A DNA stretch of 62,665 nt, counting the filler. It is 6 parts of 6 records of this genome, joined end to end, with 100 filler letters (N's around TTAATTAATTAA, not from the genome) between each part and the next. Parts side by side here need not be neighbours in the genome. Positions count along the whole stretch, not along the records: positions 25,264 to 43,476 come from SRR31147125_34614; 5 more parts are not named here. One strand, 5' to 3'. The notes beneath the pieces are model-generated. The model saw only the letters and a program-made list of their open reading frames with translations. It searched no databases and had not been told where the DNA came from. Made by a program: the position numbers and the translations under genes. How positions within the stretch are numbered: the stretch's first letter is position 1; each line of letters opens with the position of its first letter. This document shows, in pieces, positions 16,514 to 53,879 of this stretch.

Positions 16514-17691
16514 CTATTTAAGGAAAAGAAACTTCTGGAAAACAAGTATTGTGTTGTCCAGTTTTAAGATGACAACTGCGCCGGAAAGGCTAAAATAATG
16601 AATTGTAGTTATAAATCCAGCTGCATATGAAAATCTAGGATGAGCCACCATAAAATCACTAACTGGCTTCAAAGCAGGGAAGAAATTGTCTTTTTGGGCA
16701 ACTTTGTCCCAAAAGATTCTCCATGCTCGCCAAATAGCCAACCCGATTCCCTGTGCAACGCCCCAAATAATATAATGCGAACATATGCAATGCCATGCTC
16801 CACAAATGAAAAATGTGATCGTGACATTTCTTAGGGCGTTTCGCCTGCCACCGCCAAGTGGTCTATATACATAATCTCGCAGCCAGAAAGAGAGTGAAAT
16901 ATGCCATCTTCTCCACAACTCACCTATATTATCGGCTATTAGAGGCATATAGAAGTTTTCCATTAGTTTGAAACCAAACAATCTGGAAACGCCGATTGCG
17001 ATATCGGTATATCCTCCAAAATGTATGTAAACTTCAATTACCGTCAAAAACATCATGACATACAAAAAAGTCCATGATAATTCGGCTATTTGAGGTACAT
17101 ATTCGAGCCGATACGGGTAGATAACACCCATGTAAATAGCTGATTTTATAACGCCAACTGCTATTCGGAATAAGCCGTACAAAATATCGAATCTGGTGAC
17201 TCCATCTCTTGTGGATTGCTTGATGTCACGATCAAAATTCTGGAATCTCTCAATAGGTCCCAATCGCAAAATCGGGAAAAAGATCATGAAAAGGCTTAGA
17301 TGAGAAAGCTTTGCATCTTTAATTTTACCTTCAAAGCTATCAACAATATAGTGGATAACCTTTGGTAGCATAAAAGCCACACCAGCCCAGTGTAAAATCG
17401 GGAGTGTAAAAGTGCGATTAATTAAAGGAACTACCGGTTCCCAATCAATTGTTTCCCGGAATAGCAAAAAACCATAGAAAACCATTACAAAGGAAACAAG
17501 GTTTCGCGTTGCTTTTCGTTTAAACGCCGGATCTTCAAGCGATCTTTGCTGATATTTCTTAACCAGTAGGTGAATTAATATCGGGAAAACAAACAGGCAC
17601 GCTGTAAAAAACACCGTAAAGTATTGATACCATTACCAAACTTGTTGCGGTAAGGTAAAAAATACGATGTTTTTTGGGGACAAAATAAAAA
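16514..17691 (-). CDS. MBOAT family O-acyltransferase (AlgI/DltB-like), 5' truncated
   Basis: GPIERF, FGGYTDIAIG, ENF, WRRWHISLSFWLRDYVY and GAWH motifs. Confidence 0.9.
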
Positions 17692-17964: not shown

Positions 17965-20900
17965 TTATGCCCGTTTACGTTGGTTTAACCATTTTTCTAT
18001 CCGATGGTCTCGGTTGTCGATACTTTGAGCCTCCATTTCGGACAATTGGTTACCAGCCATCCATTTCTTGAACGATTCACCGCTCCAGTTTCTCACCAGC
18101 AACCTTGGAATCGTAAAGGGATGATCATCGGGGCCGATCATCCTCTGTATATTTGAGACAGCTGCATAAAAGCCTGCCGATTCAACATGTTTAACTGATG
18201 TCTCGTTAAAATCGCCTTTCGCCCCGAATGGATAGGAAAAAAGCCGAACCGGCCTCCCTGTCATTGCTTCGATCCTATATTTGGAGAAGGCGATCTCCTC
18301 TTTTTGTTCCGGATCTGAAAGTGATGACAGACGCGGGTGCGTCATTGTGTGCGCCCCAATTTCGATGTAAGGGGAATTGGATAGCTGTTTCAATTGTTCC
18401 GATGTCAAAATTGATGGACGTACCTTCGACACCTGGTCGCCGGAAGCCCATTGAAGAATTTCATCGATTACTTGATATATGGTTTCAGTAGGATACTGTT
18501 TTAATATCTTGCACAGCTTATCGTAAGTGCGTGATCTGAGCCGAGCTGTCATGGTAGACCAAGTACCTTGGATACCCTTCACAGATAGTTCCAAGACGTC
18601 CGGTAGTTTGTCGCGTGTCAGCAACACGCGGCCAAGCGCATCCCACCAAAATTCCCGCTGGGTATCTATAAAACCAGTAGTCACAAAAACAGTGGCATGA
18701 ATATTTCTTTCTTCGAGCAGTGGCCGTGCAAAAAGCAAATTGTCGACATACCCATCATCAAATGTGATGGAAATTGTGTCTGGCGACAACCGGCCTGATT
18801 TTAAAGACTCCGCCATTTCGAATAGCGGTATGACACGATAACGCTCTGATAATATCCTTAGATGTTCCTTGAAGTGGGAGGGAGATACAGCTAACAGCTG
18901 TGGATCAAGGGGATCATCGTATATGCGATGATATAGCAGTACGCGTGGGGGCATGGAATGGATCGATCGTTTTACGACGGTACCTCTTGTTTGTTCACCC
19001 TGTCCTGCCTCTGAGGGTTTTTGGATCTCTATTGTATGAAGAATTGCGCATTCCGGTTCAACAGGATGCATATCCTCAGGCACAATATCGTTAATGGCAA
19101 GGCCGTCCAGGAACGCCTTTGCCAACTTGCGATTGCCGAAAGATTGAATATGGCACTCGCTATCCGGCAAAACTGTTTTGATCAACTCTTGAAGCGTATT
19201 GCGACTAAACCGCCAGTAATCCCCCCATCGGTCCATGTCATAACGCGACACCTGACTGATACCCGGTACGGATAACAATATAACGCCACCCGGTTTCAAC
19301 GCACTAAAAGAGTTATTGAGTGTTGATTTGACGTCATATACGACGTTAAGCGTCTGGGTCAGAATGATACAATCGAATTCGTTCTGAGGAATATTTTTAC
19401 CGGTTGCCAGATCGCCGACAATCGTTGCATCTCGAGAAGATTCGACATTAAGCACGTCGGATTGATGAACATCTCTGCCAAACCTCTTGGTATAGGCATT
19501 ATCTGCGATCTCCAGAACACGGCCTCTGATCACCTCTCCGCGCATTTTCAGAAAGCGTTCGATAAAAACCCTATCGATCGGTGTGCCACGATCAAAGCCG
19601 AATTTTCTGCTTACCGGATCTTTGGCCACAAATGAATCGTATTGCCTCGCCGCCCTTGAGTTCTCGCAGGGTTTGGCTGTGAGATTTTGACCCTCCTCGT
19701 CGAATCGTTTTTCCCAGGTCCCAACATCAAGTTTTTTGGACACGACTTTCGCGCCGACTATGATTTGATAATCAGGGTCCGAGTATCTCAGCAGATCTAT
19801 TGGCAGCGACTCTGCGGGTCGCCTGTCGATTTGGGCTTTCGCAGCACCTACATTTCCAAAAGTGACGGTGTTGTAATCATATTCAGGCAGTGCGTCTCGC
19901 AAAATATTTCCTAACGCCAGGTCCGTCAGCATCAAATGGTGATTCTGAAGGGGGTTACAAACGCCAGGGGTCATAAGAAGCAAGCAACCCTCACGGCCCG
20001 TCAGTTCCACGACTCGCTGCAACAGCGTCCAACACAACTTATGATTGGCCGGCAGGCCGAATATGAGGATACAATCATATGGGTGCACGCCCCGTCCACG
20101 GTTGATGGATTTCTGTTGAACGATTTCATCCGCGTCCAACTGATCGATGGTTGTGCTGTAGTTACCGATCTCCCGACGCGTCTCCTCAGCTATTTCACTG
20201 CCGATGATCAGAACACGTCCAGACACATCTCGTTGATATCGCCGAAGGAAGTCATTCTCATAGAAATTGAAAATCGTCGTCCTTCTCTCTGGAAATACCT
20301 CCTGAATAGAAGTATTTTTAGCCTTTGGCTTTGCTGCATTATTCCTTTTGTTTTCATCCCTGGCGGTGGATTTGACGGTTCTCATTTGTTTGGCATAGAC
20401 GAGCAGGAAAAAGCGGGTCTCTTTTGACAATTTAAAGGGCGGCTTGCTCGCCGGATTGGTCACATGATCGAAGTCGCTTATTAAGTATCGAAAGCCGCCT
20501 CTATCCAGGATGGACAGGATATGATGCAATTGTTGGCCGGTTTCCGGAAAACCATGGTACTCGAATACCAGTTGCCGCACATATTTCAATTGCGATTCGA
20601 CATCTTTTAACACCGCATGTTCGGCCCCTTCGATATTCAATTTCAAAAGCTCAACCGGTTCGGAAAGATACGCTGCAAGTCTCACCACTGGAATGGTACA
20701 ATTCATACTATCTGAGAACATGGAACCGCCATCGGAACCGTCTGAGCTAAAAGAGATCTGTCCTTCACGGTCCAAAAGTCCGGCGTTTATCACCTCCACA
20801 TCGTCTAATCCATTTGTTTCCAGGTTTTTGTTTAGCAATATGAGCGATTCTGAATCAGGTTCAAAAATCGTGATGCGTGCCTTTGGATATCTTTGCTTCA

Positions 20901-22947
20901 CGAATAGTGTAAACAGACCTATATGACCACCACCGTCTATCACCCTTGGTGCTTCAGAGTCTGCGTCGAAATCGTAGATTTTTTGGATAAAAATATCTTT
21001 AGCCGCGATATAGAATGCGAGCAGATCCCTGCAGTATATTTTCAATCCTTTGAACCGAATACACCAATCACCATATCGTTGTTTTTTGGCAGTTCGAAAG
21101 ATGTTTCCCAGGTCGTCATTTGCGACAAGCTCCTTATTTGGCTGCAATGGCGTGGCCGTTGTTTTCTTTTGTTCGGCACTCCGCATAACCTCCAGTGCGC
21201 CTTTGTGACAGGGTTCTATTTCAAGTATCGCAGTTGCAAATTTCGCTGCGGCGTCACGATTGTTTTTCTCTTGGGTCATTCGCACAAGCAACCAAAGATT
21301 ATCAACATGGTCTGGTCGCCGAATATAGACCTGTCGGCACATATCAAATGCATTTTGAATTTCTGTTCCCGTATCAAACAAATGCCGTGCCAATGAATAC
21401 ATGTACTTTGTATTTTCCGGTGCACCTCTTAATGCCTGTCGATACATATCCGCTGCAGAAGAACTCTTACCAATGGCCTCCAACGCTTTGCCAAAAAGAA
21501 AAAATGCTTGTGAACAACCGGGGTGGTATCGGGTGATGAGTTCCAAAGCGGCCATCGCCTCTTGCTGTCTCGCCGTAGATAGCAAGGCATAGCAATCCTC
21601 CGCTACTTGGCTCAAACCATCGTCGGACATGTATTTAATGTTTTCCGGTTGCGGTATATGAATGGTCTCTGCGCTGCTTTGAGCAACGAACCGACTGATG
21701 CTCTCATGGTACATCTCATCGATTTTTCGTTTGAACTGTTCTAAATATCGATGGAGGTACTCATAGCTTTCAGCATGCAAATGCGTTAGGTAGTGACTTG
21801 TTTTTAAATTTTCATGGATCTTGTGTTTTATAAATTTCTCTCTATCTTTATCACTGGCCTCAAACGGGACGTGCCCGGCTTTTTCCGGCAAGCCCTCTAT
21901 CAAATCCGCCAACCGCATAGTTGCCATTCCATCTGCGTGCGGCTGGTAATTATTCAATGATTGTTCCATACGATCGAACGGATAGGTTTCAATTAAAGCC
22001 TTGATTTCACTGTATGATCGCGCAATGGGTTCAAAGCGCAAAATGTTCTTCAATTTGGTGCGATCGCCATCGAAATCCGGAAGGACGGAAATAGTTTTTC
22101 GCCCCTGAATCCATCCTTCGATAGCAACGGTGCTATCAGTATGGAGGACCACATCGCTCAATTGCAAAAGCGGTACGACGTAATCATGGTTATCGACAAG
22201 GATGATGTGATCGTCACTATAATGATCCTGGTAGTATGAAGATTTGTCCCAGGGATGTCGTTTAATGAGCAGTACGTCATTGTTGCGCTGCAGGTCTTTA
22301 ACCAGATCCTTTAAAATCAGATGGTGTGCTTTTTTCTGCTCCATCTCTTTGGAGTGGAGAAACACCGTATCAATATCTTTCAGGTTGCCGGCCGACACTT
22401 GGCCACCCGTGTCGTCGAAAATAAAGGAAGAGATGTATAGATATTTTTTATTGTAACTCCCAAGATTGTATTTCTTGTCTATATGGTGGGTCTCAGCCGC
22501 GCAGATTTCAGGATGAACTGAAAGATCAAAGCGCGGGCATCCGATGAACTTGTATTTCAATTTATCCGTTATTTCAGTATGGTTTTGAATATATTGATGG
22601 TATTCCTGATTTACGATGACCTGAAAATCTATGTATTTTTCGTTCCAACATTCGAAATTGAATTTGAAAAAGTTGTCTATCTTGTCCGCGTGACAAACGT
22701 ATTCCGTCGTATTGATCACCAGGTTGATGTTATGGCGCACAACGAAATTGGCTATGATAGAAGTGGATTCTTCACCGATTTGCCCCATAATGACCGTATC
22801 CGGATTACACATTCTGATCGTCTCCTCCGGATGTGTCCATAAGGGTTCAACCCAAACAAGGTGCCCTCTGCGCCGCAATACCTCCTGCAGAAACAATAAA
22901 CCGCGATAATCTCTAATAAAGTTATCGTAAAATAGCAGAATACGCAT
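17965..22947 (-). CDS. Multi-domain glycan-modifying protein: surface-carbohydrate biosynthesis/GT-B-like + TPR + FkbM MTase + two class I MTase-like + polysaccharide deacetylase
   Basis: RDY..IGCPRFDL..IKRHPW..STVAIE; TPR helices; IDGGGHIG..FEPD..KLNIEGAE; FGFDRGTPIDR; LLYHR..TFDDGY..HTMTHP..FSYPFG. Likely start MRILL at 22947. Confidence 0.8.
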   Translation of the reverse strand: MRILLFYDNFIRDYRGLLFLQEVLRRRGHLVWVEPLWTHPEETIRMCNPDTVIMGQIGEESTSIIANFVVRHNINLVINTTEYVCHADKIDNFFKFNFECWNEKYIDFQVIVNQEYHQYIQNHTEITDKLKYKFIGCPRFDLSVHPEICAAETHHIDKKYNLGSYNKKYLYISSFIFDDTGGQVSAGNLKDIDTVFLHSKEMEQKKAHHLILKDLVKDLQRNNDVLLIKRHPWDKSSYYQDHYSDDHIILVDNHDYVVPLLQLSDVVLHTDSTVAIEGWIQGRKTISVLPDFDGDRTKLKNILRFEPIARSYSEIKALIETYPFDRMEQSLNNYQPHADGMATMRLADLIEGLPEKAGHVPFEASDKDREKFIKHKIHENLKTSHYLTHLHAESYEYLHRYLEQFKRKIDEMYHESISRFVAQSSAETIHIPQPENIKYMSDDGLSQVAEDCYALLSTARQQEAMAALELITRYHPGCSQAFFLFGKALEAIGKSSSAADMYRQALRGAPENTKYMYSLARHLFDTGTEIQNAFDMCRQVYIRRPDHVDNLWLLVRMTQEKNNRDAAAKFATAILEIEPCHKGALEVMRSAEQKKTTATPLQPNKELVANDDLGNIFRTAKKQRYGDWCIRFKGLKIYCRDLLAFYIAAKDIFIQKIYDFDADSEAPRVIDGGGHIGLFTLFVKQRYPKARITIFEPDSESLILLNKNLETNGLDDVEVINAGLLDREGQISFSSDGSDGGSMFSDSMNCTIPVVRLAAYLSEPVELLKLNIEGAEHAVLKDVESQLKYVRQLVFEYHGFPETGQQLHHILSILDRGGFRYLISDFDHVTNPASKPPFKLSKETRFFLLVYAKQMRTVKSTARDENKRNNAAKPKAKNTSIQEVFPERRTTIFNFYENDFLRRYQRDVSGRVLIIGSEIAEETRREIGNYSTTIDQLDADEIVQQKSINRGRGVHPYDCILIFGLPANHKLCWTLLQRVVELTGREGCLLLMTPGVCNPLQNHHLMLTDLALGNILRDALPEYDYNTVTFGNVGAAKAQIDRRPAESLPIDLLRYSDPDYQIIVGAKVVSKKLDVGTWEKRFDEEGQNLTAKPCENSRAARQYDSFVAKDPVSRKFGFDRGTPIDRVFIERFLKMRGEVIRGRVLEIADNAYTKRFGRDVHQSDVLNVESSRDATIVGDLATGKNIPQNEFDCIILTQTLNVVYDVKSTLNNSFSALKPGGVILLSVPGISQVSRYDMDRWGDYWRFSRNTLQELIKTVLPDSECHIQSFGNRKLAKAFLDGLAINDIVPEDMHPVEPECAILHTIEIQKPSEAGQGEQTRGTVVKRSIHSMPPRVLLYHRIYDDPLDPQLLAVSPSHFKEHLRILSERYRVIPLFEMAESLKSGRLSPDTISITFDDGYVDNLLFARPLLEERNIHATVFVTTGFIDTQREFWWDALGRVLLTRDKLPDVLELSVKGIQGTWSTMTARLRSRTYDKLCKILKQYPTETIYQVIDEILQWASGDQVSKVRPSILTSEQLKQLSNSPYIEIGAHTMTHPRLSSLSDPEQKEEIAFSKYRIEAMTGRPVRLFSYPFGAKGDFNETSVKHVESAGFYAAVSNIQRMIGPDDHPFTIPRLLVRNWSGESFKKWMAGNQLSEMEAQSIDNRDHRIEKWLNQRKRA

Positions 22948-22948
22948 C

Positions 22949-23646
22949 TTATGCACTTTCATTTATATGCGTCATGGCAATTGCCATTCTGTAATCATCC
23001 ATATCGTCGATATCGATGGCATGGCGCCAATCCATTGGAAAAGTCCGCCATCCCTCTCCGTAAAGGTTCTCTGGGACTTTAATTGAGTGGCGTCTGCTAT
23101 CCAGGTAGCCCCGGTTGGACAGTATAGCCTCGGAAGGTCCTGAGATCTCTTTCTTGCCTCCGGGAACAGAAAATCAGGCTTTTGGGTCTCCTCTGTTACG
23201 GTAAGCGCCCACCATGGATTCATCCATCCATATCTGAACACACTGATTTGAAATGACAATCGGTTCCTATTGAAATGGCTGTACGCGTTTAGAATATCTT
23301 GTGTGTCGCGCAGAGGACAATTTGCCATTAATTGGACCACGACATCAAAAGCGGTACCATAGTACGCTTCTGCTTGGATCAACGCATTGGTGGTTGCCGT
23401 CCATACGGGCGTCATGTCATCCGCATCGGACGGATCTCTCAAGAATGGCACAGATGCCCCGCATTGCTTTCCTGCCTCAGCAATACGACTGCTGTCCGTA
23501 CTCACCAGTACAATATCGAAAAGGGCACTGTTTTTTGCGGCCTCGATCGTCCAGTCAAGCATTGGACGCCCGTTGAAATCCATGATGTTTTTATTGGGCA
23601 ACCTCTTGGATCCGCCACGTGCCGGTATGATCGCTATTCTTTTCAA
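22949..23646 (-). CDS. neuA: Acylneuraminate (nonulosonate) cytidylyltransferase, frameshift near 23062
   Basis: IIPARGGSKRLPNKN and VSTD motifs. The alternate frame supplies the conserved AIDIDDMDDY and stops at 22949. Confidence 0.85.
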
Positions 23647-25163
23647 ACGGGTGGGTTTTCCTCTATTCTATTCTCATTGAAGATGCGGTAGACGGCAAAA
23701 CAAACTTTTTCCAAAGTGTCTTCCTGCATGTGGGAATACATGGGCAGGCAAATAACATTATCGGCGACTTTTCTTGAATTGGGTAATATATTCCCCACGT
23801 CGTGATATTTTTTAAATACCGGCATATCGTGAAGCAATGGATGGAAATACTTTTTTGTTTGAATACCCTCCGATTTGAGTTTTTTCATCAACTCATCACG
23901 CGTCATACCGAAGTCATCAGGATCAATGACGATTGCGTAATCCTTGAATGTACTCAAGTTAGCATCATGAACCTTCTGAAAACCGATACCCGGTATCCTG
24001 GACAGCCTGGCTTTATATCGATCCGCCAGTTGGTTTCGCCGATGGACGGAATCGGGCAGAAGGTTCAGAGCCTCAATGGCAATGGCAGCATGAAATTCGG
24101 ACATCTTCCCGTTCAACCCCACATAGTGACAGTCATAATCCGCAGCGGCCCCATAGTTCCTTCCCATTGTCAACACCTTCAAAATACTTTCATCGTTTGA
24201 CGTGACAATGCCGCCTTCTGCCGATGTGACGACTTTAGTTCCTGAAAGAGAAAAACACTCTGCGCTGCCGCAACCGCCTATCGGTATGCCATTATAGAGG
24301 GATCCCAGCGCATGGGCTGCATCGAAAATCAGCTTTATACCATGTTGATCGGCGATCTCTTCAAGAGCATCTATTTCGCAGGGATTGCCGAACACATGAA
24401 CGCCGATTATAGCGGCAGTCTTTGGTGTGATTTTTCGCTTCACATCCTCAGGATCGATATTGAATGTTTCCGGATCGATATCTGCGAACACAGGTGTTAA
24501 ACCGTTCCATAAGACAGCGTGCCCTGTGGCGGAAAAGGTAAAGCTGGGCAATATGACTTCGCCTTCAATATCCAAAGCCCTCAGTGCCATCATTAACGCG
24601 GTTGTGCCATTTGGAAAGGTGAGCGCCTTTTTCACCGGCAGCAACTCTTCTATGTTCAGCTCAAATTGCTGAGCATAGTCGGAAAAATTGGTCAGCATTT
24701 TGCTTGCTACTATTTTCCTGAACTTTTCATCCAGGAGGTAATAGTCAGGCATGGTCGGTTGGGCGACGTAAACCTGACCCACCGGAAATACGTCCGGTAC
24801 TGTATCCTGATAAATATCTTTAGGATATTCCTTCTGGGAAAATCCTTTCATTGTTCTTCCGGAAGGCACGTTTTGGACAACAGTGGAGCCTGCGGCGATC
24901 ATAACACCGGAACCGATGCGAATATCCGGAAGAATGGTACTGCCCAGTCCGATAAATGTCGTCGAGCCGATTCTGACCTTATTGCCCACAGTCACACCTG
25001 CGGAGACAAAAATGGATTGGTCTATCCTGCATTCCGCCTGAATAATTGCGCCGGACTCTACAATGGAGACGCTGCCCAACTGAACCCCGCAGCCGATGAC
25101 CGCGTTGGGACCGATATAGCAACCTTCATCTATCACCGATTGTGAATGGATATTGGCTGAAGG
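23643..25163 (-). CDS. NeuD/PglD-like hexapeptide acetyltransferase fused to DegT/DnrJ PLP aminotransferase, 5' truncated
   Basis: Hexapeptide repeats followed in frame by NGTTAL, FDAAHALG, SLSGTK and AEGG motifs. Confidence 0.85.
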   Translation of the reverse strand, partial: PSANIHSQSVIDEGCYIGPNAVIGCGVQLGSVSIVESGAIIQAECRIDQSIFVSAGVTVGNKVRIGSTTFIGLGSTILPDIRIGSGVMIAAGSTVVQNVPSGRTMKGFSQKEYPKDIYQDTVPDVFPVGQVYVAQPTMPDYYLLDEKFRKIVASKMLTNFSDYAQQFELNIEELLPVKKALTFPNGTTALMMALRALDIEGEVILPSFTFSATGHAVLWNGLTPVFADIDPETFNIDPEDVKRKITPKTAAIIGVHVFGNPCEIDALEEIADQHGIKLIFDAAHALGSLYNGIPIGGCGSAECFSLSGTKVVTSAEGGIVTSNDESILKVLTMGRNYGAAADYDCHYVGLNGKMSEFHAAIAIEALNLLPDSVHRRNQLADRYKARLSRIPGIGFQKVHDANLSTFKDYAIVIDPDDFGMTRDELMKKLKSEGIQTKKYFHPLLHDMPVFKKYHDVGNILPNSRKVADNVICLPMYSHMQEDTLEKVCFAVYRIFNENRIEENPPV

Positions 25164-25588: not shown

Positions 25589-27393
25589 TCACACTAGTAA
25601 CCGATGTATGACTCCTTTAGGCTCTCGTTGAGGCGGACTCATTTCATAATCGGTAATCCAGATAAACTCACCATCGCAACACATTTTTGCAAAGTGACGA
25701 GAATCGGAAATGTTGTCACCCGGTTGATAATTGCTAACACCTCTGATTTCATATGGATCGATTCGATGAACACGCTGGCCCTGGAATTCAGCTGCCCATA
25801 AATACATACCATCGAATGCAAGTCCACATAAATGATAGTTAACATTCGCAGCATCTTTCGGAATATGAGAGTCAATATCTACATTCGTTGCACCATTCCG
25901 ATGTGTAACCCATACATGTGTACCATCAAAAACTATATCTTGTGGCGTATCTCCAAAGCTAATCTCCTTGATTAACGGAGCCTCATTTCCATTTAGCTCA
26001 ATCCTATTTGCGCACACTTGATTATTTGGACCTGAACATACAACCCAAATATGAATCCCATCAAATGTCATTGCAACTGGTGATTCGAAACTCAAATGAT
26101 CAAGATATTGTTTTTCATGAGTATAAATATTTATTTTGGTAATTTTACCTTCACTATGGCCGATCCAGACTGAATCACCAGCAAATATAATTTCTTTAGG
26201 CGGTAAATCGACTTCAATTCTGGCTTTTATCACACCCGGAGCACCCGTTGCTTGATCTATTTTTGGGTAGATTTTCGAAACCAGATTTTTATTGGGGTGT
26301 GTTACCCACAAATAACAGCCATCGAAAGCGATGCCGTAGCTTTCAATATCCGCTAATTCCGGCGTTTCATTTGCTAATGCAAGTTTTTGTGAACTTGTTC
26401 CCCAGCGGTCAATTCGTACCACGTTTTCATTGTCAGTCCCATCGTCTGTAAACCAGATATAGTCGCCATCAGTCGTTATATTAAATGGATGTTTTCCTAC
26501 ATCCAATTTCTTTCTTCCAGGTGTGCCTTTTATATCCTCTTCATTCCAATGGTCCGTTATGGTCAAGATGCGGCCATCTTGATGTTCTAATCCTCTAATC
26601 GTCTGAGATAACAATGGCACAAACTGGCGGCGGTCAATTCTGGCCCCCCTACCTCGGTGGACAGTTTTTTCAAGCAACTGGTAAGTACCTCATTACTCCA
26701 AAGATATTTTCTGAGGCTGTGATTATCAATCGATTTTAATTCCTCCTCAAAGGTAACTTTTGCTAAAATTATCCAGTAACACTTTTTCCGAGGTTCACAG
26801 GGATTTACAATTTCCTCACAAGTGGTTTCAATAGTTTCGGGACATCGAATTTCGAATTCTGTCTCACAATCAGTCGGTGGCTCATTCTCAAAAGCCTTAA
26901 TTTCAAATAGTTCCCGTATTCTGCTGTATTGGCATTCTTCTTTTGATTCACTACATTTTTGTACTGGAACAGGTACTGGTTCAGAAAGACATTCTTTGTA
27001 ACGAATACAAATATAAAAGGTGTCCGGACCAGGTGCGCCAGTGGGCGGAGGTTGAGTAGGTTCTAAAGAAAAAGTTTCTTTACTCTCCTCACCCTTGCCG
27101 TATAGGTCAATGGTTTGTTCCTCGCCAACAAAAATTTCATGACCATAGTGATCCAGTGCTAATCCAGGTTTAACAACTACCTGAGTGGTACATTTAGAAT
27201 GACATTCTACCGTAAGTCCGCAAACTACGCCCCAGCCTATGGAGCGCCGGTTCAATAGCCATCGTTTTTCATTAAAATAACTTTGTTCTGTTAAAAAATC
27301 GCGAACAGTAAGGAGTTTGCCGAAAAAGTAGTTTAGTCTCTCAAAAAAACTGATCTCGCTGTTGGAAAGCCCAATTTCTTCCTGTATTTTCAT
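25589..27393 (-). CDS. Fibre-like CIS protein: conserved attachment-type N-domain + beta-propeller, frameshift near 26645-26670
   Basis: N-terminal ERLNYFFGKLLTVRDFLTEQSY..GWGVVCGL; C-terminal FDGxxxWV repeats. The two ORFs overlap across A6/G6 runs. Confidence 0.6.
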
Positions 27394-27490
27394 GATTGAT
27401 TTCCTCCAAATACATCTATCAAAAATTGCTCAGTGCACTTGATTTTGATTTTAACAACACGTAAAGAAAGGCCAAAATATGATAATGAGA

Positions 27491-28981
27491 CTATAAGAAT
27501 TCATTCATCATTTCTCTCCATTCATTTAATCGTTGAGAATGAGTATGGTTTGTATGTACATATTTGTTACCATTTTTGGCTATTTCTCTTGCCTCATGCG
27601 GATAAATCAAATAATGGTTTAGTTTTTTTCTAAAATCATTTTCTGACTCTGCTAAAACCATATAATCACTACCATTTCCAAAAATATCCCCAAAACCATT
27701 TTGAGGTCTATCTGCTATTAGCAGCGCCCCACAAGCAAGAGTCTCAAAATATTTCTGATTGAGGTAGCGATATTTACCACAACAATTGAGAGCAATTTTA
27801 GTTGAAGCCAAGGCCCTAGCATAATCCATATGAACTACTTGCCGTTGTTCTGGCAGTTGACATGTATAATCTAGCATAAACTCATTGCGAACAATTTCAA
27901 CCATACGATTTCTAAAGGGATAGCTATCTTTAGGATTTAAAGAACCAATGAAGCTTATATCTATGTAGCGGTCTGAACAATAATTTCTAAATATTTTATC
28001 ATCAAAGCTAAAAGGAAGCCACCGACAATCCGTCACGCCATTAAATCTTTTCTTAAAGTCAAACATGTCATCTAAAGATCTAAAAAAGCATACATTGATT
28101 TTATTTTCTTTTATCCATTGTGCCCGTTCTTCCTTCCAGAAACAAGTATCTATCAGGATCATACATTTAGGAATATCTATATCTCGAAGACCATTGAACT
28201 TTTTAGCACGCGTAAAATTATATAAAAAGATTAAATCAGGTGGATTTGAATCATATAATTTTTTAATCACATCCTTCACTCCCAAATGAGAGTTGTAGCC
28301 TGGATATCCTTCACCATACATAGTTACATCATACTGCCTAGCGACAGTCATAGCCCAGGTGTGGTGACCAAAATTATATCGATTAACTTCATTAGGATAG
28401 AGGTATAAAATCCGAAGTGGTCTCTTGTTGCTTATTAAATTGCGCAATCGTCCCCAAAAACAAAACCAACGATTATTATTAAGACGATGAGTATGTCTAA
28501 GGACAACGCTTCCTTTAATATCTATATAGTTCGCTGCAAATGTTTCTGCCGTGTGATGGTTGTACGTTCTTTTATGACCCGAACCTCCGAAATTAGGGAC
28601 AGAGAAAAAAACTTTAGCTTCGGGTTTACATAACCTAAGTATTCTCATCATAAATTGATCGGGATCTTCCACATGTTCAACTACCTGACCAAGATGAACC
28701 GCGTCAAATGTCCCGAAATTTAAAAAAGAGTCCAGTACGCTTCCTTCAATATATTTAACGTTTTCGTTGATGTTTAAGGGATCAAGGTTTAATTTGGTAT
28801 CAATTGCTGTAACTTTATAACCAAGCTTCCCAAGACCATTAGCGAATGTTCCATCATCGCATCCTACTTCAAGCGCCATTTTACCATCTGCATCTGATTC
28901 CCCAAAAAAATCCAAGGCTTTTTTATATCGATAATAATATGAGTGCCCGTCGGTTTGGCACCACAATCTTAATTTTCCCAT
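27491..28981 (-). CDS. Class I SAM methyltransferase fused to CgeB-like (Glyco_trans_1_2) glycosyltransferase
   Basis: LEVGCDDG..FDAV..VVEHVEDP, then DISFIGS..KIALN..KYFETLACGA..EIAKNG..HTHSQR. Confidence 0.82.
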   Translation of the reverse strand: MGKLRLWCQTDGHSYYYRYKKALDFFGESDADGKMALEVGCDDGTFANGLGKLGYKVTAIDTKLNLDPLNINENVKYIEGSVLDSFLNFGTFDAVHLGQVVEHVEDPDQFMMRILRLCKPEAKVFFSVPNFGGSGHKRTYNHHTAETFAANYIDIKGSVVLRHTHRLNNNRWFCFWGRLRNLISNKRPLRILYLYPNEVNRYNFGHHTWAMTVARQYDVTMYGEGYPGYNSHLGVKDVIKKLYDSNPPDLIFLYNFTRAKKFNGLRDIDIPKCMILIDTCFWKEERAQWIKENKINVCFFRSLDDMFDFKKRFNGVTDCRWLPFSFDDKIFRNYCSDRYIDISFIGSLNPKDSYPFRNRMVEIVRNEFMLDYTCQLPEQRQVVHMDYARALASTKIALNCCGKYRYLNQKYFETLACGALLIADRPQNGFGDIFGNGSDYMVLAESENDFRKKLNHYLIYPHEAREIAKNGNKYVHTNHTHSQRLNEWREMMNEFL

Positions 28982-29040
28982 GTAACTTTTACCTTGTTGT
29001 TCTACAGAAAATTCAAAAGTTTTAATTCTTTAGTGAACAT

Positions 29041-29922
29041 TTAAATGTCCATAGTGAACTTTTCGAAAAACCAGTTATCATTGAATTTTCGCTTTTCCAT
29101 AAGATTTCGTCTTCTCATTTCAATATCACTATGCAGAAGCATATCATATGCCTGATTATAATTAGGTAGTGATTTTAAAGCTGCCTTACCCTTTTCAACT
29201 CGTTCAGAACTGAAATGTGTATATATTGTACGGAGTTTATTATAAACCGTATTCACCCAACTTACCGGATAAGGGAATTTCGAACGAAATAAATGAGAAA
29301 CAACAATTTGAGGAACAATATATACTTCGTAACCTAGTAACCAGGCGCGCAGACAGACCTCCTGATCAGTACTACCATAGCTCCTTAATCCATGATCAAA
29401 CCCGCCAATTTCGTTAAATACTGCTCGACGAAAAATCATGCATGCGAGACCGACCATTGGAACAGGATATGGAAAATGGAATTGTTGAGGCAGCCAGGCC
29501 ATATCCAATCTTGCATTCCGCCAACGCATACCAAAAGCCTTTGCGTTGGGATTACTCCATGAAGAAAGTGCGGGTGCTACAATACCGATATTTTTATTTT
29601 GCAACTGTTGAATTAGCGGTTTCAACCAATCTGTAGGAAACAGAATATGCGCATCCAGGAAGCAAATAAATTCACCCTGCGCTTTCTGAGCACCAAAATT
29701 TTTAGAGTTAGCAGATCCTAATCTTTCAGTTTTATATAGTTGGATTCGAGGATCCTCGATTTCCTCGCCAATAAAATTACTACTTCCATCAGTAGAACCA
29801 TCATCAACCACAATAATTTCATAATCTGCATTTGTGTTTGCTTGAAGGTTCTGAATCGTCCTTTTTAAATTTTCCCCTTCATTTAAAGAGCCAATCACAA
29901 AACTTATTAGTACATTAGCCAT
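29041..29922 (-). CDS. GT-A glycosyltransferase, polypeptide GalNAc-transferase-like
   Basis: VVDDGSTD, FLDAH, WLKPL, FDHGLRSYGSTDQE..RAW and HLFR..PY motifs. Confidence 0.85.
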   Translation of the reverse strand: MANVLISFVIGSLNEGENLKRTIQNLQANTNADYEIIVVDDGSTDGSSNFIGEEIEDPRIQLYKTERLGSANSKNFGAQKAQGEFICFLDAHILFPTDWLKPLIQQLQNKNIGIVAPALSSWSNPNAKAFGMRWRNARLDMAWLPQQFHFPYPVPMVGLACMIFRRAVFNEIGGFDHGLRSYGSTDQEVCLRAWLLGYEVYIVPQIVVSHLFRSKFPYPVSWVNTVYNKLRTIYTHFSSERVEKGKAALKSLPNYNQAYDMLLHSDIEMRRRNLMEKRKFNDNWFFEKFTMDI

Positions 29923-29925
29923 AAT

Positions 29926-30804
29926 TCAAATATTCATGTTAAATTCTTTAAAGAACCAGTCATCATTACGAATTCTATTTTCAAAAAAATGTTGTCTCCG
30001 TTGCCAAATATCACTTTTTTGTACCTCATTATATGCACTGTTAAAAGAAGGTAATGTCTGTATCGCTCTAATGGATCTATCCATTCGTTCTTCGCTAAAA
30101 TGGCTTATAACAGTACGCAACATATTATATACTACTTCATACCAATGAACTTTATAAGGATGTCTCCGTCGAAAAAGGTGTAATATTTCGACTTCTGGTA
30201 CGACACATACCTTGTATCCGAGGGTCCAAGCCCGAAGACAAATTTCTGCATCCTCACTTCCAAAATTCACCATACCTGAATCAAAACAACCCATTTCAAA
30301 AAACGTTGTAGCACGAAAACCCTGAAACATACCTGCCACCATCGGAACCGGATAAGGTTCATGATTTTGTTTTGCCAGCCACAGCATATCCAACCTGGGA
30401 TTGCGCCATTTAAAACCATATCCCTTTGATCGTGAGTTACCCCAGTTAGAAATCGTTGATGCTACTATCCCAACTTTTTCCTTTTTAAGCAAATAAAGCA
30501 GTGGTTCAATCCAATCCTTTCGAAACAAAACGTGCGCATCTACAAAAAATAAGAATTTACCCTGTGCTTGTTGAGCACCAAAATTTCTTGCATTGGCAAC
30601 ACCCAGCCGTTCAGTTTTAAAGAGTCGAATTTGTGAGTTTTTTACTTCTCTTTCAAGAAAATCACTACTACCGTCGGTAGATCCATTATCTACAACAATG
30701 ATCTCGTAATTTTGCGTTAATGTATCTTGTAGGCTTTCAATTGTTTTGCGGAGATTGTCACTCTCATTCAGAGTTGGTATTACGATACTAATCAGCATGT
30801 TCAT
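29926..30804 (-). CDS. GT-A glycosyltransferase, polypeptide GalNAc-transferase-like (paralog)
   Basis: VDNGSTD, ARNFGA, FVDAH, WIEPLL, MVAGMF, FDSGMVNFGSEDAE and HLFRRRHPY motifs. Confidence 0.85.
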   Translation of the reverse strand: MNMLISIVIPTLNESDNLRKTIESLQDTLTQNYEIIVVDNGSTDGSSDFLEREVKNSQIRLFKTERLGVANARNFGAQQAQGKFLFFVDAHVLFRKDWIEPLLYLLKKEKVGIVASTISNWGNSRSKGYGFKWRNPRLDMLWLAKQNHEPYPVPMVAGMFQGFRATTFFEMGCFDSGMVNFGSEDAEICLRAWTLGYKVCVVPEVEILHLFRRRHPYKVHWYEVVYNMLRTVISHFSEERMDRSIRAIQTLPSFNSAYNEVQKSDIWQRRQHFFENRIRNDDWFFKEFNMNI

Positions 30805-30830
30805 TAATTCACTGTTTAATAATTTTGTAA

Positions 30831-32026
30831 TTATTTACTCTTTTTTACTACTTTAAAAATACCTTTTTTTGTAACCGGGAAACTTCCTGGATTAATCACA
30901 GTGACATCACGTGGACCTATCTGTGCATTTTTCCATACTTTAATCATAACTTTTAGTTCATTCTCCTTGATAAATTTTTCACCTTTTTTAGTTATTCCCC
31001 TATCTCTTGGTTCTCCGAAATCGACTTTTGATTCTTTTACGAAATGATTACCCTTTATTATCATTTCACTTTCTTCACCTTGTTCCAATAATTTAGGAGC
31101 CACGTCCTTTATAATCGGTGCTACACTCTTTTTTGGCTCAGCCTCCACCACAGAAGATGGTTTGTAGTTCATTGTGTATCTGGAAGCAAGAGGTGGTTCC
31201 TCCGTAGGCTGAGGTTCATAACACTGCCACCAATCGTCTATTAGACTTTTCACCAGTCGACGATGTTTGCAACAATCTATGTCTTCAATATTACCCTTAT
31301 CATCCAGCTTTATATCTGCCAGTATGACCCATGGTTCTTCGGGACATTGTGGACAAGATGGCAGTTCTTCTCTTCTTGTATAAATGGGTCGTGTCAGCCA
31401 ATCAATTTTTTGGACTGTGTCTAGTTTAGATTTAAATCTAGTAAGAAAATCAGTTGAATCCCCATCTAAATCCTCATGTGATGATGGTAAATCCATCAAT
31501 GTTTTAATAACAAATCCCTCTCTTATACGAGAATGTTCACATCGAACTTCATCACAATTGCATCCCAGCGGATGAGCTCTAACTGGACGAGTATCATACT
31601 CTTGATATTTTATAGCAATATATATCGTTTTACCTCCCAAGCCGCTTTTTTCACATCACGACACCATGGATCAATCCCATCTTCTACCGTTCCATGTACT
31701 TCCTTTCGAACGTCAAAAGTCACCTCCTGATTAACAATGATCTCATCCCCAAAAGGTCCCAAAATATAACCTCTCATTATTTTCACCAGCCAGGGTTCAT
31801 ACGAACCATTTTCACTTCTGTCCTCCTTTATAACAGGTTGAACCTCGCACCCACAAACAACTCCCCAACCATGCAAAAGACGATTATGGCGACGGAGTTT
31901 GTCACGGAAATACTCCTGTTCTGTGTTCATATCATCCGGAGTAAGGAGCATTCGAGGGAAATATCGTACTCGTTCCAATGTAAAACCATCTGAAAGTTTA
32001 CAATCTAAGATTTTCATTTGTGCCAT
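30831..32026 (-). CDS. Fibre-like CIS protein: conserved N-domain + C-terminal IPT/Ig-like domain, frameshift at A6 run 31646-31651
   Basis: ERVRYFPRMLLTPDDMNTEQEY..HGWGVVCG. One added A joins the ORFs (DVKKSGLGGKTIYIAIKY). C-terminal PIIKDVAP..IKGNHF..GPRDVTVINP. Confidence 0.65.
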
Positions 32027-32220
32027 AAGTTACCTCCATTATCCTTTAAAAAGGACAGATGTTTATTTTTACACAAATCATATTATAACTCAAAACATTA
32101 TTAATGATTATTTTGTATCAAAAAATCATCTTAAAATAGTTTACATCCGACGAATTCAAGAAAAACATGATAGCAATGACCTAAATCTATTTATTTAAAT
32201 TCTCTCTCTCGTAGAAACAA

Positions 32221-34795
32221 TTAACTTAGAGAAGTCTTTATGCCCACCCGACTGTCCTGGGCAATTCGTCCCTCGTCTCTACGTCTTCCACCGAATTCAG
32301 ATATTATTGTGTCTTGCCCTAATTTTGTAGACCTCGTTAATACCATATCAGGAGCCTCCTCGGACACAATCGTGTCAATACCAACCCGGGACTGGAATCC
32401 CACCCGCATTTTAGGTTCTATTGTGCAGAGGTGATAATCAGTATGGGCTGGTTTTTCTCTTTCTATTATTGTTTTAATTTTCTCCACATCCTTTTGACAT
32501 TTCAGTTGACACCAATAAACGAGAACATAAAAGAAATGAGCTACGTCTTCAAACAAAGGTGCACCAAAATCCTTGTCCTCAATCAAATGGGACTGATCCA
32601 ATGTGGCAGTCGTGCCTACAACAGCTCCTTGTGCATGAGCCGGCGCCAGCATAGTAGAAAAACCTAAAAGAGAACCATCCGTATGCAGCCAAATATCATT
32701 TGGTTGAGCTTGCAAATTTTTCTGCTCATCATTTTGATCTTGTGTTGATGTTGGTGGACAGATTAACCAGCATTCAGGTTGTTCTGTCTGCGCCTTTATC
32801 GTTTCTTTTTTTGCTGGCAGACACCAAAGAGATGCTGTAAGCAAAGGTTCTTCGATTATAGCATCTACGTTCGCATAAAGCTTAAGGTATTGCATTAAAC
32901 CTTCAACAGTGCCTCTTTTCGCTTGTAATTCAAAGGCTTTAGCAATCGCATCACGCTTTTTCTGTTCGCTCCAATCTTCATCCAGATCCATTGCCACCCA
33001 GCTTGCCAGCCAGGGCAAAAACCGTTCAGGAACGGCATAAGAATCGAAATATTTAGGCAACCTATTGATTTGTTCTTCAACACCATCCAGAACACCTTCA
33101 AATAATGATAAAAAGCGTTCCAGGAATTCCCGGCTTTGATTATCTTTTGCATATATAGGAGGCAAATAACGTAAATAAGTGTCCTGATTGTAATCAATCC
33201 GAATCCGATGTATAGTTGGCGATACAGTCTCATCTCCCCAAAAGAGACCTCCAAGCCATAAATACTTTGCCGATACTCTGGGCAAGGGTGCATTAGCCTC
33301 CGCATATTGTTTTGATAAAGGGCTAATATTATTATGTGGCAAACTTGGGATTAAAGCATCCAGAGTATTGGTCGGGATTGGATGCCAATCTTCATCGTCA
33401 AATGGATTCTCCGTATCAGGTAAATAAATGGGTTCCTGTTCTTCGTTACTTGTGTAAGCAAATAATTTGAGTTGTGCTTCCTCGGGAATTTGTTCTGCTT
33501 GTACCTGCAGGCGATGCCATTGAACCGCTGTATCTTCAGGATTATATGGTCCTGCCAGGAAACTTCCCTTTGGAAGAAAAGCTCTTCCAGGGAAAAGTCT
33601 TACCATCTTTGGCGGTTCGCCTGGATGTAGCAATAAATTCCCATTACTATCAATACACAAAGCAGCTACTGGGCCATCGTAACCACGAGCCTGTCCAACA
33701 AATTTCCCATTGGTCCGGAACTTGAGTACCGCCTCTCTGGCATTGTCTCCGATGTACACCGAATCTTCAATAACTGCAATGCCAGCAGATTTAACTTTTG
33801 TATACTCAGTAGGAATCGTATGTTTTAAAATCAACGTTTTATATTGATTATAATGTATGATACCAATAGATTTTCGTAGAGACTTCAAAAACTCTTTATA
33901 TTTGATAGGCTTGTTTCTTCTTAATATTGTTAAACTATTTAGAATAACTTTTGGAACGTTTTTCAGTTTTAACTCATTAATAGATTTATCAGTTATTTCA
34001 TAACTTCCGGGAGGAACTGTTATTGGCCAGGGTTTATCAATTTTCAGGTGTCCCTTCGTATCAAAAACAAAAACCAGATCGTCTTCAATGTTTGGTCTAC
34101 AATCAACAACAAAAATTCGTTCTTCATCACCTATTTTTGTGATTGAAATAAAACATGGTTCTTGTAAGGTCAAATTAGCTGTTTTGACTTGCTTATAGAG
34201 GACATTCCAAAAGTCAGTAATCACATTCCCTCGACTGTTAAACTTCTGAATTCGCTGGTTACCATGATCAACGACATATAAAGAGCCAGCACTATCCTCA
34301 GCTATTTCCCATGGGTCCTTGAATTTGCCAGGTTCATCACTGGATCGAGGCTTAATAAATGGTTCTGCTTGGCCCCAAACGTTTTCAAGTTGCAAAGTAT
34401 CGAGGTCAAATAATAAGACAAGATGGTTTCCACTATCAACTACATATAATATATCATTCTTTCCAACGAGTAATCCGCGAGGAGTATTCAGTCCAACCTT
34501 ATTCTTTTCTCTATCCAAACAAGGAATCGGCTCTATATTTTCTGTGCATATGTCGTATTTGAATATTCGATGTCCAATGGGATCTGACAAGTATACGTTG
34601 CCATGCTTATCGGTAGTAATACCTGCCGGGACCTGAAGTCCTTCAGGTTTCTGGTATGTTATTTCTTCTGAATTCTCAACTTTAGGTACGTGCGTCAGAG
34701 TGAGCGATCCATTTGGATTGATCTCTAAACCGTTTAGTTTAAATGATGGCCAGCGATTTTCGAGGTTTAAAAAGAAGAATTTTTTTATTTTCCAT
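32221..34795 (-). CDS. NHL-repeat + phage tail protein I (P2 gpI-like / TIGR02242-type) baseplate wedge protein
   Basis: NHL repeats (LYVVDSGNH, YVVDHGNQRIQKF); YLRYLPPIY..FLERFL..FLPWLASW..RGTVEG..IIEREKPAHT. Probable start MENKKFFF at 34795 with one extra A. Confidence 0.85.
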
Positions 34796-34804
34796 ACGAG
34801 TACC

Positions 34805-35782
34805 TTACTCTTCAATGCCCATCCATACAATGTGCCAATTTAAAAATTTTCTAAGACCTGGAATGTCATATTTATATTTATCAAAAAATTGAGATGGATT
34901 TATTGGTGGTAGATAATTTGTTTCATCTATTTCAGGCATTAATAGTCGAAATTCAAATTTTCTCTCAAAAGGTATATCTTTAATAATAGATATGTTGACA
35001 AATCCTTCTAATAAAAATTTATCAACATCTTCATTAAAATGCGCTTGATAAAAGCGCTCACCTGCCACCCGTGCAGAATAGTGTGGAAAAGTGTTAAATT
35101 TTGCTTCAGATGTATCGACTTCAGCCTTAAGACCTATCACTATGCCACCCTCTTTCCAAAATTTCCAATTGGTATCTTGGGGATCTGTTTTACCTGCAAA
35201 AATCCGCGGAAGCTTTTCCGGATGAGCTTTCCTTGGTATTAAGTCAATATAGATATGTTTTATCTGGCAATTTTGAACTGCTAAACGCTTGATAATGATT
35301 TTTAGACCGTTTTTGATATCAGCCTTCATGCTGTCGTCTTTAGGCTGGAAATTCTGATCAAGTTCCACCCAATGGAACACAGGATCCTCGACAAGTCTAT
35401 CGGCGTCATTTGATAATTGTATCCTCTCGTTTTTTGGGGCCTCCTTAAGGTGGCCTTCATCTGAGTAGGAAATGGCCAAATCGTAATTCACCGGATTACC
35501 GAAACCGTCGTCAGCTATTGGAGGAATTGATAAAAGGCGTCTTTCTGTGAGCACAATTTCCCTGCCGCGCGAGTCAATGGTATAACCTGGTGCAACGGCC
35601 AGCTCGCGATCTCCTACGTTTCCACTCACAGAAAAGCCCATGCCGATACCGGGTTGATGCAGACTCTGGTTGTGCCGCCAGCGCATTTCGCGATTAAATG
35701 CTGTAAGTGTCTGCATATCCGATGCAAACAGACGCTGTCCGGTAAAAAATTGAATGCGTTCAACTTTTTCAATAATTTGCAC
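34805..35782 (-). CDS. Fibre-like CIS protein, paralog 3
   Basis: ERIQFFTGQRLFASDM..REMRWRHNQSLHQPGIGMG; ends WMGIEE. Confidence 0.65.
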   Translation of the reverse strand: MQIIEKVERIQFFTGQRLFASDMQTLTAFNREMRWRHNQSLHQPGIGMGFSVSGNVGDRELAVAPGYTIDSRGREIVLTERRLLSIPPIADDGFGNPVNYDLAISYSDEGHLKEAPKNERIQLSNDADRLVEDPVFHWVELDQNFQPKDDSMKADIKNGLKIIIKRLAVQNCQIKHIYIDLIPRKAHPEKLPRIFAGKTDPQDTNWKFWKEGGIVIGLKAEVDTSEAKFNTFPHYSARVAGERFYQAHFNEDVDKFLLEGFVNISIIKDIPFERKFEFRLLMPEIDETNYLPPINPSQFFDKYKYDIPGLRKFLNWHIVWMGIEE

Positions 35783-35840
35783 TTACATTCCTCAGTAAAA
35801 AATATTATTCATTATTCAATTTCTTTATTTCAACATTTAA

Positions 35841-36866: not shown

Positions 36867-36881
36867 TTTATCTTACCTCAA

Positions 36882-40192: not shown

Positions 40193-40229
40193 TTGTTTTT
40201 ACTTTTTCTCCAAATTCTTTTTCTATAAT

Positions 40230-49747: not shown

Positions 49748-49749
49748 GT

Positions 49750-52530: not shown

Positions 52531-52535
52531 AGTTA

Positions 52536-53801: not shown

Positions 53802-53879
53802 AAAATTTAATACATTTTTTTTCGACCACGATATGGGTGTGACTTTTTCAGAAACTAATTCAACATAAACTCAACGCAT

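Follow-up and report, generated by a model that had tools for sequence, protein, structure and literature searches.

The window analysed here, a stretch of DNA of 62.7 kb, encodes two adjacent glycosyltransferases, GT-a and GT-b, which we propose are members of a large bacterial family that is sister to the eukaryotic polypeptide GalNAc-transferases (ppGalNAc-T, family GT27) and polypeptide GlcNAc-transferases (pp-GlcNAc-T, family GT60). Our proposed reading of the locus is cytoplasmic protein O-glycosylation by GT27-like enzymes, here attached to the fibre module of a contractile injection system. In its specific form, in which two non-redundant enzymes O-glycosylate Cis13-type fibre proteins in the cytoplasm, we give this reading a probability of about 0.4. 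An earlier note on this DNA had pointed to GT27-type signatures in both open reading frames (ORFs) and had proposed that they encode cytoplasmic Ser/Thr O-HexNAc transferases.

Both ORFs are complete and lie 3 nt apart, and their products are 52% identical (151/291 residues, E 5e-121). Pfam model PF00535 was matched by both enzymes (1.2e-32 and 2.4e-28). PF02709, the C-terminal 'Glyco_transf_7C' module which according to Pfam occurs in GT7 and GT27 enzymes, was matched by GT-b above the cut-off of 23 (28.8 bits) and by GT-a just below it (21.3 bits). All of the motifs named in the earlier note were found in the two ORFs and aligned residue for residue with human GalNAc-T2, confirming, at the level of sequence, the observation of GT27-type signatures. 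FVDAH/FLDAH of the pair fall on FLDSH, W-x-EPL on WLEPLL and PMVAG/PMVGL on PMIAGG; farther along, FGSEDAE/YGSTDQE fall on WGGENLE, LRAW on FRVW and HLFRxxxPY on HVFRKQHPY. In GT-a, these motifs provide the DxH residues D89 and H91, the Glu-Asp of the xED motif (E184 and D185) and the C-terminal His H209. The alignments of both enzymes with GalNAc-T2 start at the fold's first beta strand, which begins at residue 5, and continue past the distal His, and the proteins end ~83 residues after this His. In a profile of 30 family members (A1), the C-terminal segment of ~70 residues proved to be specific to the family. It contains numerous invariant columns as well as a DDDWFF-like motif, and it occupies the place of the GT27 linker and lectin domain. 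A Pfam scan detected no ricin lectin domain in GT-a or GT-b, and a hydropathy scan found no hydrophobic segment (maximum 19-residue Kyte-Doolittle mean 1.00 for GT-a and 1.29 for GT-b), bearing out the description of the enzymes as soluble and lectin-free. In both respects the pair differs from GT27 enzymes, having neither the ricin-type lectin domain nor the type II membrane anchor.

The likeness to GT27 is real and specific. With single sequences, phmmer gave human GalNAc-T2 as the top match of both enzymes among 177,635 distinct PDB sequences (1.1e-17 and 1.3e-15). With profile A1, the 16 best distinct PDB sequences were ppGalNAc-T entries (1.9e-39 to 7.5e-30), one of which, 8uhv, is deposited only as 'Glycosyl transferase'. 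These entries ranked ahead of chondroitin synthase (4.7e-28) and of other GT2 enzymes (2e-19 or weaker), and no GT7 chain in the PDB was matched at E<=0.01. All GT2-like enzymes share the N-terminal Rossmann half, and the C-terminal halves were therefore also searched alone (profile A2). At E<=1 against the whole PDB, all 16 distinct matches of A2 fell in the same ppGalNAc-T group, with nothing else. PF00535 together with PF02709, the GT27 catalytic architecture, was present in 30/30 members of A1 at E<=0.001. Whether single sequences, the family profile or the C-terminal half are searched, GT27 enzymes (human GalNAc-T2, PDB 2ffu/4d0t) are the nearest relatives of solved structure, at an alignment identity of only about 25-30%. 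The DxH and distal His of the pair align with GT27 residues that in GALNT1 are described as Mn ligands, and an aromatic residue (F or Y) stands at the site of the mobile Trp of GT27, W331. A further likeness, taken up below, is that genes next to relatives of the pair encode Thr/Pro-rich tails, the kind of acceptor used by GT27 enzymes.

The family departs from GT27 at the position of the catalytic base. Residues were counted in 122 sequences, comprising GT-a, GT-b and the 120 relatives listed. The metal motif was D-x-H (DAH, DGH or DSH) in 121 of the 122, in place of the DxD motif of generic GT2 enzymes; the distal C-terminal His was present in 121/122 and the conserved Glu of xED in 104/122. 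The residue following this Glu (D185 of GT-a) was Asp in 121/122, whereas the GalNAc-T alignments have Asn there (GGENLE), such that the Glu-Asn of GT27, without an Asp at the base position, is not the pattern of the family. PF00535 combined with a conserved xED-Asp is instead a trait of generic inverting GT2 enzymes. The alignments show a family that mixes marks of GT27 and GT60 (DxH, distal His and C-terminal half) with a mark of inverting enzymes (xED-Asp). As described by Taujale et al. (2020; PMC7185993), GT27 and GT60, which are retaining, fall in one clade with the inverting GT7 family and the GT2 domains of chondroitin polymerases, and replacement of DxD by DxH is confined to GT27 and GT60. 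According to the same article, the xED-motif Asp serves inverting GT-A enzymes as catalytic base and varies among retaining ones, with the retaining GT64 family keeping this Asp but not using it. Because the family keeps the xED-Asp where GT27 has Asn, a retaining, mucin-type alpha linkage cannot be assumed; the conserved Asp suggests a beta (inverting) linkage, as against the alpha (retaining) linkage that likeness to GT27 would lead one to expect. As to the proposed Ser/Thr O-HexNAc transferase activity, the peptide acceptor is plausible, given the Thr/Pro tails next to relatives (7/19 vs 2/45, see below), and HexNAc as donor sugar is suggested by analogy only.

Two other families in this clade invite comparison. 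The cytoplasmic Skp1 enzyme Gnt1 is grouped with the GT60 pp-alpha-GlcNAc-transferases of protists. PF11397 ('GlcNAc'), which we take to be the model for GT60, was matched above its cut-off by GT-a alone of the pair (29 vs 21 bits) and by only 1/30 members of A1, and we set GT60 membership aside on this count. GT60 does share the DxH motif with the family, and the absence of a ricin-like domain is reported for GT60 too (PMC8724618). Chondroitin polymerase K4CP (GT2; PDB 2z86/2z87) is the next-best solved relative after GT27, and both it and the GT7 enzymes, which are inverting members of the same GT-A clade, resemble the family in the conserved xED-Asp. However, these enzymes use DxD, act on glycans and are not matched by A2.

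The two copies also differ from each other. In a FastTree phylogeny of the 122 sequences (midpoint root), GT-a grouped with P0001 and P0002, all of which have GSEDAE, and GT-b grouped with P0012, P0028 and P0029, which have GSTDQE or GTTDQE. By this tree, the a-type and b-type copies are two separate conserved orthologous clades. GT-b has Thr at the nearly invariant Glu, but because it keeps every invariant column of A1 and its clade shares the Thr, this residue is a fixed feature of the clade rather than a sign of decay. The GSED/GSTD difference, which the earlier note had read as a hint of divided labour, therefore corresponds to a conserved split, and division of labour between the copies would be the simplest reading. 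P0001 (a-type) and P0029 (b-type) are each listed with one contig of 3,723 nt, which suggests that the tandem pair recurs.

To the evidence from the enzymes themselves can be added that from the genes next to their relatives. A metagenome scan with patterns from the C-terminal halves gave 29 loci, which together with L001 and L003 formed 19 groups at 90% glycosyltransferase (GT) identity; 45 unrelated GT2 loci with full flanks served as controls. An ORF was counted as tailed if it was on the same strand, ended <=2.6 kb upstream and had T>=4 and T+P>=12 in 20 residues within the last 70 residues of the frame. Such an ORF was found for 7/19 family groups vs 2/45 control loci (Fisher one-sided p 0.002). 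A stricter Pro/Thr criterion (<=400 nt) gave 5/19 vs 1/45 (p 0.007), while a laxer one (<=3 kb, either strand) had a high background, with 8/45 controls positive. Upstream sequence was shorter than 1.8 kb in 7/12 of the negative groups. In L086, the tract lies inside a divergently oriented ORF. Because the upstream neighbours of relatives carry such tails, a protein with Thr/Pro-rich segments would be the acceptor, and the pair probably puts sugars on proteins rather than building a polysaccharide.

L084, the closest relative with any flanking sequence (58% identity to GT-a), has the same gene order as the window, with a Cis13-like ORF upstream. This ORF is 41.5% identical to residues 97-142 of the C-terminal fragment of the window's fibre protein (E 1.9e-6) and ends in a TP repeat right after a shared WWxC motif, 120 nt before the GT gene. 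Where L084 has the TP repeat, the fibre protein of the window continues through a short linker, rich in Pro but poor in Ser/Thr, into an Ig-like domain. When 18 window proteins were compared with 35 related loci by tblastn, the L084 fibre fragment and an NHL repeat were the only matches outside the GT genes. Relatives at 48-51% identity (L089/L091, L090 and L092) are preceded by a gene for a LysM protein, in which a long Pro/Thr tract is followed by a conserved acidic C-terminal peptide. This LysM gene (L089 8897-9412; at the contig starts in L090 and L092) lies directly upstream of the GT gene, and the acidic end might be a docking site.

A third arrangement was seen at 42-45% identity, where the GT is fused to DUF6065 and preceded by an ORF of 240-300 amino acids (aa) in which a PqqD-like domain is followed by a hydrophobic stretch, then by a middle domain that is conserved, and at the C-terminus by a tail of Thr or Thr/Pro. 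The tail is poly-Thr in L097 and Thr/Pro in L094, L099/L100, L104 and both copies in L098. Just downstream of the GT in L114 lies a gene for a long mucin-like repeat protein. A GT14 enzyme of the core-2/I-branching type ('Branch') directly follows the GT in L094 and L104, and other neighbours of the DUF6065-GT fusions include GT90, sulfotransferases and proteins with EGF, HYR or TSP3 domains. Judged by its domains, this neighbourhood looks like a eukaryote-style O-glycosylation toolkit. Three more distant members of the family also have, no more than a few kb away, genes for 2-oxoglutarate-Fe(II) oxygenases of prolyl-hydroxylase-like Pfam families (L001 3211-4185, L003 7842-8471 and L110 6560-7384), which hints that hydroxylation is coupled to glycosylation in some branches.

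In the window, the genes around the pair form a same-strand run that, by NCBIfam, Pfam and PHROGs matches, proceeds from the outer baseplate of a contractile injection system to sugar genes (see the table). The earlier note had not mentioned these baseplate and fibre surroundings. TIGR02243 matched the two Cis11-type genes at 286.5 and 170 bits (cut-off 155.8), and the Cis12-type gene reached 99.5 bits with TIGR02242 (cut-off 51.85) and 166 bits with CIS12_fam, below the cut-off of 860. Five window ORFs matched the N-terminal part only of CIS13_fam (6.2e-25 to 3.1e-5), all below the 370-bit cut-off. Around the enzymes, the order on one strand is Cis13-like, GT-a, GT-b, MT-GT and Cis13-like, with gaps of 26, 3, 59 and 97 nt, where MT-GT denotes an S-adenosylmethionine (SAM) methyltransferase fused to a Glyco_trans_1_2 domain. 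In Anabaena, Cis13 of the thylakoid-anchored injection system is described as a tail-fibre-like trimer that attaches to the baseplate through its N-terminal domain (PMC8894136). The five window ORFs resemble it in this domain, but their C-terminal parts differ, their CIS13_fam matches are below the curated cut-off and no sheath, tube, spike or ATPase genes were found among the 51 window ORFs scanned with Pfam. The same scan revealed no flippase, polymerase, priming phosphoglycosyltransferase or ABC exporter. The adjacent nonulosonic-acid-type genes (PseF-like and BFO_1060 family) are of a kind used for protein O-glycans: BFO_1060 has been aligned with pseudaminic and legionaminic acid transferases of the general protein O-glycosylation system of Tannerella forsythia (PMC5420450). 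The protein with the BFO_1060-family domain also contains TPR repeats, two methyltransferase domains, of which the first is of the FkbM type, and a polysaccharide deacetylase domain, and no hydrophobic segment was found in it.

Features of the window and ORFs of related loci discussed in the text (window positions unless a locus is named)
Feature	Position	Strand	Remarks
GT-a	29926..30804	(-)	292 aa; soluble GT-A glycosyltransferase, a-type (GSEDAE)
GT-b	29041..29922	(-)	293 aa; paralogue of GT-a, b-type (GSTDQE)
Further Cis11 / baseplate-J type gene	42038-43468	(-)	Only N-terminal part of model matched
Cis11 / baseplate-J type genes	37886-40192 and 40230-42029	(-)	Above TIGR02243 cut-off
Three ORFs with weak Cis13-type N-termini	34805-35782, 35841-36866, 36882-37889	(-)	E 3e-5 to 3e-6
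Cis12-type baseplate protein	32221..34830	(-)	N-terminal NHL propeller; Tail_P2_I / TIGR02242 domain
Cis13-type tail-fibre-like gene, directly upstream of GT-a	30831..32026	(-)	Two frames: 31610-32026, 30831-31640
MT-GT	27491..28981	(-)	SAM methyltransferase fused to Glyco_trans_1_2 domain (Pfam)
Second clear Cis13-type fibre-like gene	26587..27393	(-)	Cys-rich; N-terminal baseplate-binding domain, CIS13_fam 6.2e-25, below cut-off
362-aa ORF	25589..26677	(-)	No firm family, beta-propeller-like by repeats; listed start overlaps preceding gene
NeuD-like acetyltransferase fused to DegT/PseC/DesI-like aminotransferase	23643..25136	(-)	Sugar activation
PseF-like cytidylyltransferase	22972..23646	(-)	Sugar activation; 2.7e-42
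1665-aa multi-domain enzyme	17965..22962	(-)	N-terminal BFO_1060-family domain (2.3e-31), nonulosonic-acid transferase-like
MBOAT membrane O-acyltransferase	16514..17614	(-)	Last gene of same-strand run
PqqD-type / mucin-like ORFs of relatives	L094 2095-2982; L097 5584-6324; L098 3871-4599, 7273-8127; L099 8067-8807; L114 7653-8855(-)		Soil metagenomes

Several features of the module deserve mention in their own right. As found here, the injection-system module (25589-43468, minus strand) consists of outer baseplate and fibre genes only, and no tape-measure gene was found within the 62.7 kb either. Upstream of GT-a, the fibre gene passes from one of its two overlapping frames to the other close to an A7 run (junction near 31640). 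The two frames are regarded as one gene because an intact homologue of 406 aa exists (P0245), and the switch may stem from an error in sequencing, from a pseudogene or from slippage. The encoded protein has a Pro-rich linker after a WWQC motif, followed by the Ig-like C-terminal domain. A search of the Atlas with the second clear Cis13-type ORF (26587-27393) matched only unnamed clusters, and a promoter and terminator scan performed no better than on shuffled sequences. Elsewhere in the window, a second sugar-gene cluster (47768-55545) encodes a DegT aminotransferase, a WbsX-type transferase and two PIG-L deacetylases, along with an apparently truncated GT2 fragment of 141 aa (49005-49430).

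In the mechanism that we propose, GT-a and GT-b would be active, soluble, metal-dependent nucleotide-sugar transferases that act in the cytoplasm on proteins and not on a lipid-linked glycan. During assembly of the injection-system baseplate, they would attach the initial sugars to Thr/Ser residues of Pro-rich linkers within the flanking Cis13-type fibre-like proteins. The a-type and b-type copies would differ in the step that they carry out, be it in the sugar added or in its position, because Thr is fixed in the b-type clade at the Glu beside the catalytic Asp. The MT-GT fusion and the nonulosonic-acid genes would then extend and cap the glycan. We favour a cytoplasmic, fibre-linked pathway because the enzymes are soluble, no lipid-carrier genes were found among the scanned ORFs, fibre genes are interleaved with the enzyme genes, and nonulosonic-acid genes are adjacent. 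In this scheme, we infer that proteins are the acceptor, that the fibre proteins are the ones modified, and in which order the steps occur.

A number of observations weigh against fibre glycosylation by the pair. No Thr/Pro-rich tract (T>=5 and T+P>=10 in 20 residues, any frame of at least 60 aa) was present in the window, and the best Ser/Thr/Pro stretches of the neighbouring proteins were ordinary (<=12/30 residues). The sequence has a frameshift in the fibre gene that precedes GT-a, and the product of this fibre gene ends in a Lys-rich Ig-like domain after a linker with few Ser/Thr. The same-strand run includes the MBOAT gene and a polysaccharide-deacetylase domain, which usually act on polymers. 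Among the relatives, four groups with long flanks had no tailed neighbour (L001, L003, L109 and L111), and because L089, L090 and L092 are one lineage, the 7/19 groups amount to about four independent architectures. The only known context of the a-type/b-type pair is this window, L084 belonging to a neighbouring clade, and the sub-cut-off NCBIfam matches of the enzymes include the polysaccharide transferases EpsD and HpsN as well as MftF. Overall, the interpretation in the earlier note holds for the GT27 likeness, the soluble, lectin-free nature of the enzymes and the GSED/GSTD split, but gives no ground to assume a retaining alpha linkage, and no mucin-like tract by the above thresholds accompanies the pair in the window.

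Some of these observations fit a rival reading, in which GT-a and GT-b would be common inverting transferases of the GT2 type and supply internal sugars of a glycan (a polysaccharide, a glycolipid or an oligosaccharide already started), encoded in a sugar island that was inserted among the fibre genes and is functionally unlinked to them. We regard this as doubtful, though with a real chance of being right. The conserved xED-Asp is that of inverting GT-A enzymes, both proteins match PF00535 and many GT2 models, and the L086 relative sits among other GT2 and rhamnosyltransferase genes. Within the window, the MBOAT gene, the deacetylase domain, the second sugar-gene cluster (47.7-55.5 kb) and the missing Thr/Pro tract are in keeping with glycan building as well. 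However, the metal motif is the DxH reported to be confined to GT27 and GT60 (PMC7185993) and not DxD, and the C-terminal half finds ppGalNAc-T entries only in the PDB. The Cis13-like genes on both sides at short gaps and the enrichment of Thr/Pro-tailed neighbours in relatives also speak against it, and no flippase, polymerase, priming transferase or exporter gene was among the ORFs scanned.

Two further alternatives concern what kind of polypeptide is modified. That the pair glycosylates a small ribosomal peptide or a peptide-derived cofactor, as ribosomally synthesized and post-translationally modified peptide (RiPP) type enzymes such as MftF do in mycofactocin synthesis, and not a structural protein, seems very unlikely to us. 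MftF (TIGR03965) is the best NCBIfam match of both enzymes (9.9e-23 and 2.5e-26, residues 5-216), but with 80.7 and 92.6 bits it stays far short of the 280-bit cut-off. The PqqD fold is a peptide-recognition element, and the relatives at 42-45% identity that are fused to DUF6065 do follow PqqD-domain ORFs; these, however, encode proteins of 240-300 aa with Thr-rich tails of their own, and no PqqD, radical-SAM or short precursor gene was found near the pair among the window ORFs scanned. Finding eukaryote-like enzymes inside an injection-system module also raises the thought that the pair is cargo, delivered into a target cell to modify proteins there, which we consider the least credible explanation. 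The genes lie between the baseplate/fibre and sugar-synthesis genes rather than at the end of the cluster, in a window whose scanned ORFs include no sheath, tube or spike genes. Moreover, the family occurs mostly outside such modules, with no Baseplate_J match in the ORFs of 16 related loci scanned, and relatives pair with Thr/Pro-tailed proteins of the same genome. Modification of the fibre proteins stays our preferred reading, and a modest share of probability is kept for explanations beyond those given here.

The family is large. At E<=1e-5, a word-indexed search returned 715 proteins with lengths of 160-511 aa. The closest of them is 68% identical, and most are stand-alone proteins of ~290 aa; their few named sources were Ktedonobacteraceae, Bacteroidia and Verrucomicrobiae bins. 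Among longer proteins there were 476 matches at E<=1e-8, many of them DUF6065-GT fusions of about 760-820 aa, with Terriglobia, Bryobacteraceae, Thermoanaerobaculia and Methylococcaceae as the named bins of those with DUF6065. Other partners fused to the GT domain were a Stf0 sulfotransferase, a GT25 domain, TPR repeats and radical-SAM domains. For DUF6065, neither a PDB relative nor an Atlas lead was found, and no paper in the open-access literature searched names it. In an exhaustive profile search, the number of cluster representatives was 4,780 at E<=1e-30 and rose to 260,592 at E<=1e-10, the latter figure certainly including general GT2 enzymes. No NCBIfam model claims either enzyme, all matches being far below the cut-offs. 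The family was rare in the phyla sampled, where 1/401 genomes (phylum of G001) and 1/401 (phylum of G005) had a relative at E<=1e-40, counts that may have missed relatives as six candidates were scored per genome. A profile search of genome contigs with a generic GT2 pattern gave L001-L003 as the full-length relatives among the matches listed. In a viral contig collection, no relative was found with the family-specific patterns, and of 33 GenBank phage records matched, none covered 80% of the query (best identity 25-27%).

Bacterial GT27-like genes as such are not new, since a B. firmus GB1 protein that CAZy annotates as a candidate for GT27 was published in 2011 (PMC3178493). In the open-access literature searched, we found no paper characterising a bacterial GT27-like enzyme and no report of a glycosylated contractile injection system, the search for the latter yielding a review on phages of Gram-positive hosts. 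Glycosylation of particle proteins has a precedent in the virions of mycobacteriophages. A parallel can also be drawn with flagellin glycosylation islands, in which soluble transferases and nonulosonic-acid genes lie beside the genes of the decorated structure, though the transferases there belong to a different family: Maf, which is described as O-glycosylating flagellin on Ser/Thr (PMC11339370), is not a GT-A enzyme. A more sweeping interpretation would make the window one branch of a widespread bacterial 'mucin-type' O-glycosylation, in which soluble sisters of GT27 and GT60 start glycans on Thr/Pro-rich tails or linkers encoded by neighbouring genes, with the fibres here coated by a methylated, nonulosonic-acid-capped glycan that could determine target recognition or protect the particle. 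The combination of DxH and xED-Asp would then mark the family as near the prokaryotic stock of eukaryotic mucin-type O-glycosylation. Taken as a whole, we think this unlikely to hold in full.

Mucin-type O-glycosylation has been treated as a eukaryotic invention (PMC8724618). A large bacterial family with a GT27-specific C-terminal half, usually encoded beside Thr/Pro-tailed proteins, would bear on its origin, and the combination of DxH with xED-Asp would provide a natural test case for the switch between inverting and retaining GT-A enzymes. The family would also offer soluble, lectin-free enzymes for glyco-engineering. If the fibres are indeed glycosylated, the sugars would add a new layer to target recognition by injection-system particles.

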